A DNA stretch of 64,000 bases from positions 96,001 through 160,000 of IMG/VR virus record IMGVR_UViG_3300028735_000004. One strand, given 5' to 3'. This document shows, one piece after another, positions 35,917-43,404 of the stretch; the stretch's first letter is position 1, and each line of letters opens with the position of its first letter. The DNA comes from a virus. Taxonomy: Duplodnaviria; Caudoviricetes. The position numbers and the translations under genes were made by a program. Under the pieces are notes generated by a model, which did not search any database, was not told the DNA's origin, and saw only the letters and a program-made list of their open reading frames with translations.

Positions 35917-36813
35917 TTATAAAATTTGTCGTTCTCTAAGAAACCGCAGGCGCATCAAACTTGGAGATGCATTTAGTGGTCTCAAAGTTCCAACGCCAAA
36001 TGGAGCTGGGCGCATATTGTTCTTAATAAACTTCAATTTCTCAAAATAATTATTTAATAAAGTGCTATATTGGGTATTTAACATTTCTGCAATAGACGGT
36101 GGGGTAAAATTAACTCCATTATCTGTAATTTGAAACTCACGACCTCTTTCAATTAGTGCCTTAGATGCTAATGCCATTAATGTTGCGCCTTCTACTAAAA
36201 CATTATGAAACTGATCAATAATAGGAGTATCTTCAAAACTAAAAAATGTAAAAAATGGAATTTCGTTAAAAGCACTTAAAGAATCAGCAAGAAATGTGGT
36301 TAGCATATCTACACTAAAGATATCACAATCAACATAAATAATATTGCCGTAATTATCTTTGCTTTTTGATTTACCGCTGCTATTTAATCTTGCTCGCAAA
36401 GTTTTCATCAATTTATTAATATTAGCAATAGCATTTTGAGAATAATTAAATCCAGGATCATCTCCTAAATGAATATAACCGTCAGTATTTAAAGCTGGAG
36501 TTTGGGTAAAATGTACAACAAAATTAAAACTGGCTTCTATACGAAAACCGTCCATATGTCCAATCCAAGTATCATTCCATACTCCAAATGGACCCTCAAA
36601 ACCTATTGGGAACAAATACTCATATGTACCAGTGCTAATTTGAGATACACCCGAACTTGTAGGACCAGCAACTAATAATCCGCTTGGTTGCCTAATGCTA
36701 ACCTGAGGAAAAGCATCAAGATCTTTTGCTTGACCAAAACCATCTTTAAAAGTAGCTCTTAAAGATACTGTATCTTTTGGCCCAATAAATTCTCCGCGCA
36801 TTTTTACTGTCAT
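35917..36813 (-). CDS. Head-tail adaptor / neck protein with N-terminal Ig-like domain
   Basis: 298 aa; VLVEGATLMALASKALIERGREFQITDNGVNF...LNTQY adaptor-like helical region. Confidence 0.55.
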   Translation of the reverse strand: MTVKMRGEFIGPKDTVSLRATFKDGFGQAKDLDAFPQVSIRQPSGLLVAGPTSSGVSQISTGTYEYLFPIGFEGPFGVWNDTWIGHMDGFRIEASFNFVVHFTQTPALNTDGYIHLGDDPGFNYSQNAIANINKLMKTLRARLNSSGKSKSKDNYGNIIYVDCDIFSVDMLTTFLADSLSAFNEIPFFTFFSFEDTPIIDQFHNVLVEGATLMALASKALIERGREFQITDNGVNFTPPSIAEMLNTQYSTLLNNYFEKLKFIKNNMRPAPFGVGTLRPLNASPSLMRLRFLRERQIL

Positions 36814-36857
36814 TTAGTTAGTCCTTGTTATATAAATGCGGCAATAATAATATAATA

Positions 36858-37412
36858 TTATTGTGTTTTAGGCTTGCTGTAATATATTTTCTTTATATGA
36901 TCTGGCACATCACCTTCTAATCTTTGCGTAAATTTATTTTCTTTATTGATTTTAGGTGGTGGTTCTGAAGCTGGTTGAATCAAAATCAATTCTTTAATGC
37001 TTTCGTCAGTTAAGAAATCTGTTGCTTTTGCTAAATTTGGAAAAACTTTTGATGTTATTTGTCTGGCGCCTCTTGCTTTATAAATAACTCTATATGGTTG
37101 AGTTTCAGATGCGGTGGCTTGTTTAAATTTAGTTTTTAAATGCTCTGAAATAAGTATGGGTATAACTTTATTAATATCTAATTTTTCTGCTTCAATTGCA
37201 CGACGAAGTTTGGCAAAAGCTTTACCTTCAGCAACATTATGTCCGTAAGGTTTATCATAATATCCCATATGACTTGGATATTTGCTTGATAATTCATTAT
37301 ATTTTCATATAATTTTTTAAATGTTTCCCAAACCTCAGGAGCAATTTAATGGTGCAGCAAATTTTGCAAGATTATAATACAAATAAGATGATTTTAGTAA
37401 ATTAAAATACAT
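36858..37412 (-). pseudogene. Hypothetical protein with two 5' frameshifts (track ORF 36858..37268 is its 3' part)
   Basis: An ATG at 37412 abuts the upstream stop; restoring one A at ~37346 and one at ~37303 gives MYFNLLKSSYLYYNLAKFAAPLKIAPEVWETFKKLYEKYNELSSKYPSHMGYYDK... Confidence 0.6.
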
Positions 37413-37748
37413 TTATCCTGGACTAACGCTATACTGACCAAATGGAGCGGAAACAACAATTTGGTATGTTTCAGTTTTAGTATAAGTTCCAGAAGGTTCA
37501 ATATAAGAAACGCTAATTAAATAAGTTCCAACCGCAGATGATCCTGAGGGTAAAATAAATGAATGATAATATAATCCAGTATCGTATTTGGTCATTGATA
37601 TTGGATAAGCCAAAGATAATGATAAATTAGGTAGTATTACTTTATCAACTACAGGAACAGTATATCCATCAGATGCAACTCCATTAGCATCTACTACTTG
37701 TAAATAAAATAAAACAGTTTGTCCAGGACTATAAGATAAAGTAATCAT
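37413..37748 (-). CDS. Small Ig-like virion protein
   Basis: 111 aa, all-beta; resembles the N-domain of 35917..36813 (GLYYHSFILP...GTYLISV). Confidence 0.55.
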   Translation of the reverse strand: MITLSYSPGQTVLFYLQVVDANGVASDGYTVPVVDKVILPNLSLSLAYPISMTKYDTGLYYHSFILPSGSSAVGTYLISVSYIEPSGTYTKTETYQIVVSAPFGQYSVSPG

Positions 37749-37797
37749 TTTTCTCTAAATTAATGTTAAAATATTAATAAAAGCATATTATATTGTA

Positions 37798-38193
37798 ATG
37801 TATGGTAAAAAATCAAAAGAAGAGTTGTGGGTAAGTAATATATCTAATACAGATGTTAGTTTATCTGATTTAGGTATTACTATTCAAAAATACACAACCG
37901 TTGATTTATTTAATTTTAAAAAATATCCTTTTTTAAATAAACAATTAGTTATCCAATCTATCCAAACCGGCTCAATCTCAAAAAGACCAAATAAATTAAT
38001 CATTAGACTATTACCTCCAGAAAAGAAAAAAATAAAAAATTTACCAGTAAGTGATAAACCTTTAACCGGCTCATTATATCAAAAAAATGCCGTTAAAGTC
38101 GATAAAGAAGTGTTTGAAGAATTAGATTTGCCAGATGAAGTTTATGCAGAAGAAAACGCAGATTTTGCCGAATTTGATAGGAACAAGAAATGA
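37798..38193 (+). CDS. Hypothetical protein
   Basis: 131 aa, first of a divergent three-gene unit. Confidence 0.65.
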   Translation: MYGKKSKEELWVSNISNTDVSLSDLGITIQKYTTVDLFNFKKYPFLNKQLVIQSIQTGSISKRPNKLIIRLLPPEKKKIKNLPVSDKPLTGSLYQKNAVKVDKEVFEELDLPDEVYAEENADFAEFDRNKK

Positions 38194-38321
38194 AACAACA
38201 AGTAAAAACCGTTAAAAATGTTGAAGAAAAAGATTTACTTCAAGAATATGATGAGTTAGATAAAAAAATAGAAGAAACAATTAAAAAAATAAAAAGTAAA
38301 AAAATAAAAGCAGTAAAATAA
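38190..38321 (+). CDS. Small Lys-rich hypothetical protein (43 aa)
   Basis: ATGA overlap with the upstream stop; MKQQVKTVKNVEEKDLLQEYDELDKKIEETIKKIKSKKIKAVK. Confidence 0.5.
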   Translation: MKQQVKTVKNVEEKDLLQEYDELDKKIEETIKKIKSKKIKAVK

Positions 38322-38330
38322 AGGTTTAAG

Positions 38331-38789
38331 ATGACCGACAAAAAAGATACCGGAATAACATCTTCCGAATTGCAATATATTTTAGATATTAATAAAAAAG
38401 CAATAGAGATCTATATTGAGGTCGAAAAACAAAATGAAGAAGTGTTGCATAATATCAATGAATTTAAAGAAAAAGTAGAAAATATTACTTTAAATTTAAG
38501 TGATTTAAATCATATTAATGACAAGATAGAAGATAAAATAGAGTTAAATAATAAAAAAATACAAGAAAATGAAGAAAAAATATTAAAAGAATTAGAGGAA
38601 TTTAAAAAAACTACTGTTGAAACTTTAGATAAATTAGATAAAAGTGTATCTGGTATTAAAACAGATACACAAAAACAATTACAAGATTTAGATAAGAATT
38701 TTTTTAGATTACTTATTGTACTTGGAACTATCGGTGGTGGAACTATCCTAACTATAATAAAACAAGTTATAGATATTATTAAACATTAA
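38331..38789 (+). CDS. Coiled-coil protein with C-terminal transmembrane helix
   Basis: 152 aa heptad pattern, then FFRLLIVLGTIGGGTILTII. Confidence 0.65.
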   Translation: MTDKKDTGITSSELQYILDINKKAIEIYIEVEKQNEEVLHNINEFKEKVENITLNLSDLNHINDKIEDKIELNNKKIQENEEKILKELEEFKKTTVETLDKLDKSVSGIKTDTQKQLQDLDKNFFRLLIVLGTIGGGTILTIIKQVIDIIKH

Positions 38790-38800
38790 TTATTTAAATA

Positions 38801-40711
38801 TTAAGTGGCTATAATTTTGGCTGCCATTAACTTAGCTAATAAATTATTAAAATCAGATTTTAAACTATTTAAGTCAACAGCTGTAGAATCAGATTGACTT
38901 TACCCCATAGCAGGCAATGGTTCTAAGAAATTAAGGCTGTATCCCAACACTCCCATAATCCACCATTATCTGAAACTGTGTTTCCTACCACAGTAGGCCA
39001 AGTGGGTTCAATTAATCCGGTGGTTATTTCTTGTTTAGATCTATAAATATAACCATTTGGAGTAGTAGGAATAATGACACTTCCTGTTAAATATGAAATA
39101 GATGCCGTCCAAGTTGTAGGTCTTCCCCCAAGCCCAAGGAATACCTCCTGGCCTAACAACTCTCCATCCCCAATTCAAAATAATCAACCGCTCCGCCCTC
39201 TTGCGTTTTGAATTTTCTAAGAGCAACTGATGCCACTTGTGTCTCTGCTCCTAATTGGATTGGATATTGTGATGGTTATGGTGTTATTACAGTAAATCCA
39301 AAATTAAAAAATGAATTTGAGGTAATTGATTTTGGTTTTATAGCAAATGGATTAGATCAATATGCTCAACAAAATAGTTTTGCGTTAAATACAGTTATGC
39401 AAAAAGTATCTTCTGGTGATATAATTAAATTATCAAGTGGTACGGCAAAAATATCTTCTCAATGGTTGATTGATAAAGGTGTTATAATTGAAGGCTCTGG
39501 CGGATTCGTAGGCAGTACATTAATAGCGATGAGTAATGCTAGTGATTATGGTATAATTATAGATTCAGAGACAATTAAATCTATTATATTATTTATTGGA
39601 GCATATACAGGAGATTATTGTGGATTACCTAATGCTGAAGTCGATTGGGCCAGAATTTCTGATGTACAAGTGCAATCTGGATCTTATCGATCTGGAAATT
39701 TAATTGATGGTATTGCCGTTTTTGGTCATGGTATTAAAATAGATAAATGTCATGTTTACTCTATGGCTCAACACGGAATCAGAGTTGAAGGTCCAGTAAA
39801 TGCTAATGCAAATAATTGTGTTGTATCTGATTGTAGAGTTGCAAATTGTGGTGGAGATGGTATTAGAGTTGGTGGGTATGACGGTAATGCTTGTATTATT
39901 GAAAAATGTGATTGCACAAATAATGGAAATGCTCAATATAGGGATTTTTCTTTTTTAGGAAATACATTTATATCTTGCCACGCCGATGCTGCAACAGGGG
40001 AGTGGGGATATTATGCAAATAGATACGGCTCACCAACAACTTCTGTTTATATAGGATGTTATTCAGAAGCAAATGCGCCAAGTTATTTCTATGGAAGCAT
40101 AGCTATTAGGGGTGGGGCTATAGGAAATGTAACAAGAAACAGTATTTTTGTTGGAGAAACTTATGGTAGAGGTGGATATATGGTATCTAGACCTCAAACT
40201 TTTTCTTCAGATTTTTTAAATAAACAAGAATTATGGAGAAATCATACATATAGCACCAATGATATTATAGGTTATAATGGGTATATATATACTGTTACAG
40301 CCGGTGGTAAAACAGCTGATGTTCAACATAATTTACCAGTAATTAATGGTCAAACAGTTGTTGATGGAACTGCTACTTTAAGATGTGATGGCGCTAATAC
40401 TACGGAAAGAGATCCTACAATTGTTCATGTAGGAGGTATACCAGGTACAGAAAGAATAGGCGTGTTAGCTTTCGCAGGTACTCCTGAACTATTTGAACCT
40501 ACGGCACAAGCATATACATCACCAAGATTAAATGATGATTTAGGTATAATTTCACCAGTAAAATAAACATCTATATTATTTGACGAAGTACTTGGATAAG
40601 AATAAGTATCTGATGACGGATTTATTATAATAAATTAAATTCTTTATTTCTTAAATTTGTAGTAGCTGCAATTAACTGATTATTATTAACTCTAAAAATT
40701 TTTGCCGACAT
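38801..40711 (-). pseudogene. Tailspike/head-fibre gene disrupted by an internal inversion plus frameshifts
   Basis: N-terminus (MSAKIFRVN...) on the minus strand from 40711; middle on the plus strand (track ORF 39208..40566, beta-helix); C-terminus on the minus strand (CBM-like module, then QSDSTAVDLNSLKSDFNNLLAKLMAAKII). Confidence 0.8.
39236..40510. other. Inverted 1.27 kb segment bounded by 6-bp inverted repeats CTTGTG / CACAAG
   Basis: CTTGTG at 39236-39241 and CACAAG at 40505-40510; re-inversion gives in-frame junctions ...GDVYAC|VSAPNWIG... and ...FEPTAQ|VASVALRK... Confidence 0.8.
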
Positions 40712-42891
40712 TATTCAATCCTTATAGCATTAGTGCCATCACTTATAATTTGATATGCTTTACTTCCTGGAACAACTACCCCTGTATCGCCAACAGAAGC
40801 TTTAATTGTAGCAGGATATCCGGTATTATTCCAAAAAACTCTTGTCCAACCATTAACTCCAAATTGCGCTACAACAATAAAAGATGCAACTGGAGAGCCG
40901 GTTAGTTTAATTCTATCATTATTCATCTGATAATCATTTAATGTAATAGTTCCTCCAGCGGTGCAATTTACTGATACAATACCAGAAGATTGTAAGGGTT
41001 CTAGTGCCCACTGATTGGCCGGAACATCTAAATCTAATAAACAACTCCAAGTTAAATGATTATCTACGGTATTATATCCAACAGATGTTCCCCAAGATGG
41101 TTCAGAAGCTCCACTAATTCTGCTAAAAGAATTATCTGGTGCTCCGCTTTCATATCCAGCTAATCTGTAAACATAACCATTTGCTACGGTGGGTTTTATT
41201 AATGTACCTATTGCATAGTGAGTATTTGCTGACCAAGTAGTTGCTAATGCTGCTCTTCCACAAGCGATTTTAACAGTCCATCCTGGCCCACCAGATCTTT
41301 GATAAGGAGATCCTGATTGAGCTCCATTTAATATTAAATCTCCTGGACGATACCAATTGAAGTATCCGGCACGACCAGTAAATGGAGTATCTTGAACTAC
41401 TTGTGCTATTCTTCGCTCATCACCATATGAACCGTGCCAAACATCAGATAACATAATTTGGCCTGGTGCCGGACCAGATTCATATCCGGTTAACCAATAG
41501 CCAAATGTTTGAACACCTCCAGCTAAACCTACCAACCATCTTTCTGTTACACCTGTATATGCGCTTTTTTTAGCCATCCAATAAGGAGGTGTTGCTCCAG
41601 AAGGTTTTTGCCATCCAAGAGACCATCCTTCAGAAGTACCACCTCCTATCGTATGAAAAACCTCTACTGGTTGAGTATAAGTTCCTTCACATCTCCAAAC
41701 TAATCCTTCATATTCTGATACTGTTTGACCAACTACTGTAGGCCATACAGGAGGTAATTCTCCACCGGGATGATATGTTCCATAAGTTCTTCCTGAACTT
41801 AAAGCTTTATAATAATATCCATTATTTGGTTGATAATAATCATTTTGTGCAATAAAAATTCCGTACCCTGCACCTTGTCCAGGATAACCTCTTACTGATG
41901 AATATCTATTTCTAACACTTAATGAAGATGGCCCTGCACTTGCTGGTGCAAAACCCCAAAACGAAGAATCATTATGAATATAAGCTAAATCACCACCAAC
42001 AACTGCTATATTACCTTTAAATATAGATGGTGCATCCTGTTCGGCATAACATCCAAAAAATGAAGAAAATGTAGGAGAAGATATTCGATCACAATCATAA
42101 TTTAATCTTCTATTAGCGGAAGTATGACATCCTACCCATGTACATCCCAAAAAAGAATGATCATAAATGCCAGTATCCCAATTACCAGATGCGTCTATAT
42201 TTATTCCAAGGCATACATTAGAGTCATCTCCTATTAAAGTAATACCATTTCTGCCATTATTACTTAAAACAAGATCTCTAAATTGAGTATTATTTCCATT
42301 TACCTGTGGAGTAAATGTTGGAGGATAACTTGCATATAAGATGATACCATCTCTTGGAAAACCTAATACATGTATTTCTCTAAAAATGGAGCCGTGAGAC
42401 ATAACCCTGATTCCATCCATATTTGCAGGTCCGCCGGGAAAAGTAGGACCTCCGTTTGATTGGCTGTTTTTAAGAAAAAATCCTTCAACCACACACCAAT
42501 CAGCTTTACCTCTTGCAGGGCTCATTGCTTGTCCGATCCAATATCCTGTTACGGCTATAGCGCAATATACAGTTTCTCCACCAACTGTGGGAATGCCGGT
42601 CGCTGTAGTTAAATTAAAATTACCAGTTGCAGTGTCAGCAGTAATAGTGGTATTGCCGTTTGCGAAGCCGGCTCCCCTAAATGTAATACTTTTTGATATA
42701 ACAATTGGTCTTGTTATTCGATAATTTCCGGGAGGTAAAAATACAATCGCCCCATCATTTAAAGGATCATTTGAGTGTGGATTTACTACGGCATCAATTG
42801 CCGCTTGAATAGCATATCCATCATCATTAATTCCGTCGCCTTTTGCACCGAAATCTCTTACATCATAAGTTGGAATTTTTACATAGGATAT
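40711..42891 (-). CDS. Tailspike-like protein (pectate-lyase-like head, beta-helix, CBM-like repeats); apparent start is ATA
   Basis: Frame is open 122 codons beyond the track start: SYVKIPTYDVRDFGAKGDGINDDGYAIQAAIDA...VFLPPGNYRI; AGGT lies 5 nt before ATA at 42891; 726 aa. Confidence 0.75.
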   Translation of the reverse strand: MSYVKIPTYDVRDFGAKGDGINDDGYAIQAAIDAVVNPHSNDPLNDGAIVFLPPGNYRITRPIVISKSITFRGAGFANGNTTITADTATGNFNLTTATGIPTVGGETVYCAIAVTGYWIGQAMSPARGKADWCVVEGFFLKNSQSNGGPTFPGGPANMDGIRVMSHGSIFREIHVLGFPRDGIILYASYPPTFTPQVNGNNTQFRDLVLSNNGRNGITLIGDDSNVCLGINIDASGNWDTGIYDHSFLGCTWVGCHTSANRRLNYDCDRISSPTFSSFFGCYAEQDAPSIFKGNIAVVGGDLAYIHNDSSFWGFAPASAGPSSLSVRNRYSSVRGYPGQGAGYGIFIAQNDYYQPNNGYYYKALSSGRTYGTYHPGGELPPVWPTVVGQTVSEYEGLVWRCEGTYTQPVEVFHTIGGGTSEGWSLGWQKPSGATPPYWMAKKSAYTGVTERWLVGLAGGVQTFGYWLTGYESGPAPGQIMLSDVWHGSYGDERRIAQVVQDTPFTGRAGYFNWYRPGDLILNGAQSGSPYQRSGGPGWTVKIACGRAALATTWSANTHYAIGTLIKPTVANGYVYRLAGYESGAPDNSFSRISGASEPSWGTSVGYNTVDNHLTWSCLLDLDVPANQWALEPLQSSGIVSVNCTAGGTITLNDYQMNNDRIKLTGSPVASFIVVAQFGVNGWTRVFWNNTGYPATIKASVGDTGVVVPGSKAYQIISDGTNAIRIE

Positions 42892-42928
42892 TATTTACCT
42901 AAAATAATATCCTTTTATTAATAAAATA

Positions 42929-43147
42929 TTATTTAATAATTTTTACATTAATGGCTTTAGGATCGCCTTTTATATTTTGGCCGACCTCAAATTCAACTTC
43001 CGCATCTTTTGGTACAGTTTTAAAACCATCAACTAAAATATCTGAATAATGCAAAAATATATCTTTTTGTTGCTTGCCTTCTTGTTCCCAAGAAATAAAA
43101 CCATAACCTTTTTTATTATTAAACCAACAAACTTTACCTTTAAACAT
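42929..43147 (-). CDS. cspA: Cold-shock domain protein
   Basis: GKVCWFNNKKGYGFI (RNP1) and DIFLHYSDI (RNP2). Confidence 0.95.
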   Translation of the reverse strand: MFKGKVCWFNNKKGYGFISWEQEGKQQKDIFLHYSDILVDGFKTVPKDAEVEFEVGQNIKGDPKAINVKIIK

Positions 43148-43158
43148 TCTTTTCTTCC

Positions 43159-43404
43159 TTATTTAATAATCTTACCATTTACCTCTATTGCATCTGCAGC
43201 TCCAAGTAATCTATTAATTTCTTGAGCCCCCATTGCCGCAATAGCTTCTCGTTCTTGTTGATTAGTACAATTTTTTAATAATTTATCATACTTATCGAAT
43301 ATTTTAAGCAAATCACCCTCAAAACCCCAAGCTCGACCGCTCTCTAATAATTTTTTACGAGTTTCTTGCTCATTTAAAAGTTTCTTACCATTAACTCTTT
43401 TCAT
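43159..43404 (-). CDS. Hypothetical protein
   Basis: 81 aa ORF in the operon. Confidence 0.6.
   Translation of the reverse strand: MKRVNGKKLLNEQETRKKLLESGRAWGFEGDLLKIFDKYDKLLKNCTNQQEREAIAAMGAQEINRLLGAADAIEVNGKIIK

Follow-up and report, generated by a model that had tools for sequence, protein, structure and literature searches.

Introduction

Inversion of tail-fibre segments is a known phage strategy. In systems of the Gin/Cin/Hin/Pin type, the crossover sites are ~26-34 bp long, a serine invertase is encoded adjacent to the invertible segment, alternative C-terminal segments are exchanged, and both orientations work. For a described Mu-like invertible tail-fibre case, the inverted-repeat sites are 34 bp in SfMu and Mu (PMC4406740). 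The locus analysed in this study resembles the Gin/Cin/Pin systems, such as the G segment of Mu and the C segment of P1, in that an inversion lies within a phage receptor-binding gene and both orientations occur in nature; unlike them, it has no repeats, no invertase seen in the analysed DNA and no alternative exon, and the gene appears to be dead when inverted.

A further comparison is with the beta-helix tailspikes and depolymerases (PF12708/PF13229), including those of Sf6, CBA120, Fri1 and phiAB6. Like these, the spike studied here is predicted to form a right-handed parallel beta-helix behind a conserved ~90-aa N-terminal anchor common to spikes with different bodies; tandem co-directional spike genes are found in relatives (contig L001), and structural genes adjoin. 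Unlike them, the spike carries extra 'NGYxY...EPxWPxxxGxTVxDGxxxWxC' modules and a short tail similar to that of the phi29 head fibre, and its copy is broken.

Here we report the reconstruction of this gene, of the exact joints of its inverted interior and of the further lesions in its flanks, based on assembled contigs from four sequencing runs and on alignments with homologous and paralogous spikes. We conclude that a single homology-independent inversion of the central 1257 bp very probably broke the second tailspike gene of a tandem, and that this gene is now a pseudogene.

The phage and the samples

The window, that is, the whole stretch of 64,000 nucleotides that was analysed, is part of a 243,008-bp contig of a ~243-kb, myovirus-like, uncultured giant phage from a microbial mat. 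Almost all of its genes are carried by the minus strand; tail sheath and collagen-like tail-fibre genes are present, and the spike gene lies beside structural genes. Three plus-strand ORFs (131, 43 and 152 aa) at 37798-38789 form an island amid the minus-strand structural genes that converges on the end of the spike gene. The 152-aa ORF has the look of a coiled coil with a hydrophobic stretch at its end, and none of the ORFs of this island has a family match. A scan for promoters and terminators gave counts at the level of shuffled sequences and was uninformative on plus-strand expression.

The INPHARED phage collection contained neither a near nor a distant DNA match to the window, and no relatives of the locus of ORF 39208..40566 were found in the viral-contig or metagenome-contig sets. 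The un-inverted junction likewise gave no match as an exact pattern in the viral contigs or as a degenerate pattern in the metagenome contigs. A word-seeded protein search with the whole ORF returned only the ORF itself and one match at 31% identity, and a search with a 158-aa fragment of the ORF, aimed at fragments of the X2 allele on short contigs, found nothing.

Logan contigs, as distinct from raw reads, from four runs were aligned to positions 36500-43200: X1, the probable source run of the window; X2 (freshwater, 2024); X4 (hot spring, 2025); and X6 (microbial mat, 2025), the last three from different studies. A contig was counted as bridging a joint when it extended at least 31 nt on each side. 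In this region, pieces with 95-100% identity occur in the contigs from the freshwater sample, the hot spring and the other mat, the studies dating from 2019-2025. The phage lineage is therefore widespread, with at least two alleles at the spike locus.

The spike gene and its parts

The original prediction held that the lone plus-strand ORF 39208..40566 is the interior of a minus-strand gene in reversed orientation. The X2 and X6 contigs, the neighbouring paralogue and the homologues all agree with this, and the gene spans 40711..38801. Its parts and surroundings are as follows.

40711..42891, minus strand: upstream paralogous spike (PF12708, E = 9e-17), without anchor domain, used as a colinearity reference
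40475..40711, minus strand: N-terminal flank, ~79 codons, virion-anchor domain; homologues have 40-52% identity to 40708->40461
39218..40474, plus strand: inverted block of 1257 bp, still open; it codes for the last part of the anchor motif, for the right-handed beta-helix and for the first 'NGYxY...WxC' module
38801..39217, minus strand: C-terminal flank; after a short linker come the second 'NGYIY...WECW' module and then the tail 'DSTA..DFNxLLAKLxAAxIIA'
39208..40566, plus strand: chimeric ORF of 452 codons, in which 3.3 antisense codons from the C-flank precede the block and 30 antisense codons from the N-flank follow it
39236..39241, plus strand: CTTGTG, with the partner CACAAG at 40505-40510; a chance match, not a breakpoint

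The original start codon, ATG at 40711..40709, overlaps the stop codon of the upstream spike as TAATG and is preceded by AGGA 7 nt upstream; we regard the spike gene as the second of a translationally coupled tandem. The natural stop codon, TAA at 38803..38801, follows the tail '...DFNNLLAKLMAAKIIAT', which is conserved in the homologues P0003 and P0004. The second module in the C-terminal flank matches phrog_20658. The head-fibre-type C-terminus proposed earlier is weakly reflected in a match of P0003 and P0004 to the 34 C-terminal positions of the model for the phi29 head fibre (PF11133), below the cut-off.

In the chimeric ORF, TTG is the only start codon and has no Shine-Dalgarno motif. 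The ORF matches PF13229 (Beta_helix) with 30.3 bits against a cut-off of 25.9, and PF12708 occurs in homologues as well as in the paralogue. Its AlphaFold2 model has a mean pLDDT of 80, with values above 90 over most of residues 40-310 and below 50 at residues 1-8 and 398-452; the latter stretch, which includes the 30 antisense-derived residues, is predicted to be disordered. Foldseek searches with the model retrieved phage tailspikes, AlgE epimerases and the RbmB lyase (E = 1e-5 to 1e-7), the matches including Fri1, Sf6, phiAB6, CBA120 and Klebsiella depolymerases as well as polysaccharide lyases and epimerases. PHROG tail-spike families match the paralogue and the homologues. The anchor motif (alignment A2) is conserved in P0009, P0021, P0030, P0056, P0133, P0135, P0151 and P0004, and the bodies of these proteins differ. 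The close homologues are all metagenomic 'hypothetical proteins', and identity to anything named is low. On these sequence and model comparisons, the gene is a predicted beta-helix tailspike, a receptor-binding protein resembling polysaccharide depolymerases.

Neighbouring spikes

The upstream paralogue was called as ORF 40711..42525, and its frame is open to 42894. At the head of this open frame there is no ATG, GTG or TTG. The codon 42891..42889 is ATA in the window, and a T>C difference at 42889 makes it ATG in X2, so that either the paralogue has lost its start codon or ATA is used as a start. If the start was lost, a second spike has been struck in the same lineage. The paralogue begins at a pectate-lyase-like domain; its closest homologues, P0004 and P0021/P0153, carry a ~90-aa N-terminal anchor. 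Speculatively, its attachment to the virion may have depended on the anchored spike that is now broken. On a related Logan contig (L001:4634-12392), three spike genes of 882, 877 and 826 aa follow one another in one direction; all have the anchor motif, and TAATG links the last two, those of 877 and 826 aa, as it links the spike pair of the window.

Colinearity with homologues and the paralogue

An exhaustive HMMER search yielded 729 matches, in many of which residues 4-64 of the plus-strand ORF correspond to homologue positions ~86-150; the homologues thus have ~85-90 extra N-terminal residues. Alignment of the re-inverted gene with homologues had been proposed as a check, and it proved colinear, running from N to C terminus through 40708->40467 on the minus strand, 39217->40437 on the plus strand and 39172->38807 on the minus strand. 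In tblastn comparisons, P0009, P0021, P0030, P0056 and P0151 follow the minus strand from 40601 to ~40467, then the plus strand from 39217, then the minus strand from 39129 to 38944, switching strand at 39217 and ~40467. The three spike genes of L001 (877, 826 and 882 aa) show the same minus/plus/minus mapping, and in the case of the 877-aa gene the match further includes 40708->40637, the stretch that precedes the first frameshift.

With the upstream paralogue as a query against 38700-40800, residues 36-324 fall on the plus-strand ORF and residues 419-495 on the minus strand at 39147..38947, a pattern that is colinear only with the ORF flipped. Alignment A2 shows the two pieces of the window meeting within a single codon (Val) of the motif 'FNLGDGYACAVGxNSSGxxVRATDxxCVSAPNWIGYCDGYG', and the re-joined window sequence '...NSSGVP-V-RATDATC...' equals 'NSSGVPVRATD' of P0030 across the true joint.

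The inversion and its exact joints

The arrangement of the window is found identically in X1, in a single 22-kb contig with a depth of 26. In X2 and X6, three contigs from two independent studies change strand and present the reciprocal, un-inverted joints. The joint of 39217 to 40474, on opposite strands, is covered by one X2 contig with 46 nt on its shorter side, and that of 39218 to 40475 by two contigs, one from X2 (101 nt) and one from X6 (140 and 145 nt). These reciprocal joints define the flipped block as 39218..40474, 1257 bp or 419 codons. Re-inversion at the true joints gives '...DVYACAVGSNSSGVP' joined to 'VRATDATCVSAPNW...' and '...ERIGVLAF' joined to 'GKFKTQEGG...', both in frame. 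Each break separates the first base of a codon from the second, so the block consists of whole codons in a still open plus-strand frame, and what remains of the gene is three pieces that alternate between the strands.

The junctions had been placed at 39236 and 40510, at the ends of the inverted pair CTTGTG (39236-39241) and CACAAG (40505-40510). According to the un-inverted contigs, the true joints are 39217/39218 and 40474/40475, which are 18 and 36 nt away. Flipping 39236..40510 does yield the in-frame peptides quoted for it, so the inversion itself was correctly seen; as actual junctions, these positions do not hold. The first of them, YAC joined to VSAPNW, would remove the conserved 'AVGSNSSGVPVRATDATC', 18 residues of the anchor motif, and the second would add 19 residues translated from antisense DNA.

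The CTTGTG/CACAAG pair is present in the sequence; its supposed role as a bounding repeat is not borne out, as it is at chance level and had no part in the rearrangement. Within 60 nt on either side of the true joints, four inverted 6-mer pairs are seen and 4.1 are expected from shuffled sequences, the probability of at least one being 0.96, and 6-mers are the longest inverted matches in this range. Exact inverted matches between 38800-39700 and 40000-40720 reach at most 10 nt, and the one of this length is not at the joints. At the true joints, the number of letters common to both breakpoints is zero, so that the microhomology inversion proposed as one of two possible origins is not borne out either.

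Each of these runs presents one orientation (X1 inverted, X2 and X6 un-inverted) in its contigs, which drop minority variants; a minority orientation in the source sample would thus be invisible in them. Orientation covaries with the other lineage differences at 40516, 40632 and 38942.

Further lesions in the flanks

Additional lesions had been predicted at ~40628, 39170-39140 and ~38940, and all three are real according to an X2 contig and the homologue alignments. The list below gives the lesions, with P0003, P0004, the L001 genes and the paralogue as references.

40632/40633, minus strand: loss of 1 nt; X2 has an extra C after 40632, and the window is frameshifted
39171/39172, minus strand: out-of-frame break; X2 continues for more than 255 letters unlike the window left of 39172
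39125-39129, minus strand: extra G in a C5/G5 run; frame shift seen against P0003
38942, minus strand: loss of 1 nt; X2 has an extra C after 38942
38902..38900, minus strand: premature TAA in the conserved C-terminal tail; P0003 and P0004 align through it

Restoring the C after 40632 gives one uninterrupted frame that begins at the ATG, crosses the block and reaches 39172. The X2 sequence that continues left of 39172 has no counterpart elsewhere in the window; translated, it opens with '..ELQRSGHPSSY', similar to 'YQRSGGPGW' of the paralogue. At 39171/39172, P0003, P0004 and the paralogue have ~75-95 residues where the window has none, with a change of frame, and the distance between the modules is ~95 residues in the neighbouring paralogue versus ~30 in the window. 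From these alignments, the break is probably an out-of-frame deletion of at least 274 bp, the X2 contig ending inside the extra sequence. This probable deletion, at a distance of 46 nt from one joint, could stem from the inversion event.

At the extra G, 'WGWRVVRPGGIPWAWG' in one frame and 'RPTTWTASISY...' in the next together match 'WAWRVVRPGGIPSFGPSLTWTPNTAY' of P0003. With the C restored after 38942, the window reads 'WECWGYSLNFLEPLP', like 'WECWGYTTDFLEPLP' of P0003; P0003 and P0004 align across three frames of the C-flank. The nonsense codon in the tail had been assigned to 38910-38912, and the stop is actually at 38900-38902. Together with the inversion, the five lesions make six disabling events, and at least two of the five are absent from the un-inverted allele of X2.

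The 654 nt of the flanks contain all five lesions, and the 1257-nt block is free of them (P ~0.005 under a uniform distribution, 0.014 without the deletion), and homopolymer runs are no rarer in the block than in the flanks. Between the window and X2, 3 of 732 nt differ in the block, compared with 1.1-3% in the neighbouring pieces. The freedom of the block from lesions and its lower divergence may reflect chance, selection on the plus-strand ORF or a more recent origin of the block. At 40328, within the block, the window encodes His, in contrast to Pro in X2 and P0003; this derived, non-synonymous change affects the 'xxPxxP' part of the small module.

Discussion

The arrangement of the spike locus is best explained by an accident in one lineage of the phage. 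Two breaks in the spike gene would have been rejoined blunt with the middle reversed, by end-joining or a topoisomerase-type reaction, a mechanism suggested solely by the lack of homology at the joints. The flipped block would have kept its open plus-strand frame, leaving the gene in three pieces on alternating strands, and the un-inverted flanks carry two 1-nt losses, the gain of one G, a probable deletion and a nonsense codon. We infer that the un-inverted form is ancestral, that the repair of the breaks was illegitimate and homology-free, that the inversion is fixed in its lineage and is not switching, and that the gene is non-functional. The leaning of the original prediction towards fixation and decay is thus upheld by the reality of the inversion and by the five further disabling lesions, at least two of them missing from the X2 allele. 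Like known illegitimate rearrangements followed by pseudogene decay, the locus combines blunt joints, a probable deletion nearby, frameshifts and a nonsense codon; unlike them, its lesions avoid the inverted block, a distribution that simple neutral decay does not predict, and its breakpoints could be placed to the nucleotide by comparison with the intact allele, which other samples still carry.

Both orientations exist in nature, as they would if a recombinase with its gene in another part of the phage genome actively and reversibly switched the receptor-binding gene ON and OFF, and a switch of this kind with a very short core had been put forward. We consider it highly unlikely. The pair of hexamers proposed as its core lies off the breakpoints, no inverted repeat is present at the joints, and each sample shows one orientation that is tied to lineage differences. 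In agreement with the earlier statement that the window lacks a recombinase, a Pfam scan of the 48 window ORFs of at least 100 aa, covering 64 of ~243 kb, gave no Resolvase, Recombinase or integrase family among the 25 families listed of 27. No alternative C-terminal exons were found at the spike locus, where the block is the middle of the gene, its beta-helix. With five disabling lesions in the flanks, flipping back would restore no gene. The lack of Gin-type features, the single orientation per run and the disabled flanks together indicate a one-off illegitimate inversion that became fixed. An assembly artefact, in which the inversion exists only in the assembled contig, appears very improbable as well: the window does stem from a metagenome assembly and was checked by contigs, not by raw reads, but the independent Logan assembly of X1 has the same arrangement, and the joints contain no repeats that could mislead an assembler. 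As a hint only, an X4 contig (40465-40615, no differences) crosses the right joint in the arrangement of the window; with 10 nt on one side, it was not counted as bridging.

Alternatively, the flipped block might live on as an anchor-less, free beta-helix enzyme made from the plus strand, or might be a recent backwards patch from an intact relative; we hold this to be unlikely. In a domain salvage of this kind, to which we assign a similarly small probability, selection would keep the block as a free depolymerase co-expressed with its plus-strand neighbours, while the orphan anchor and C-terminal pieces decay. Such a course is favoured by the absence of the other lesions from the block, in which homopolymers are no rarer, by its low divergence from X2, by the confidently folded beta-helix core of the ORF model and by the shared direction of the ORF and the upstream plus-strand genes at 37798..38789. 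The ORF, however, depends on a sole TTG start with no Shine-Dalgarno motif; neither the anchor nor the second module nor the conserved C-terminal tail is left in it, and its 30 antisense-derived end residues are predicted to be disordered. Moreover, the one visible non-synonymous change in the block, His for Pro at 40328, is derived and lies at a motif position, and the lesion statistic is post hoc and based on five events.

The homology-free inversion reveals no new switching mechanism. It documents cleanly, in a natural setting, how an inversion without homology inactivates a gene for phage receptor binding. With the neighbouring spike, which has probably lost its ATG as well, it shows accessory spikes being shed in a giant phage. 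It is also a warning that frames apparently restored at a short inverted repeat may be so by coincidence.
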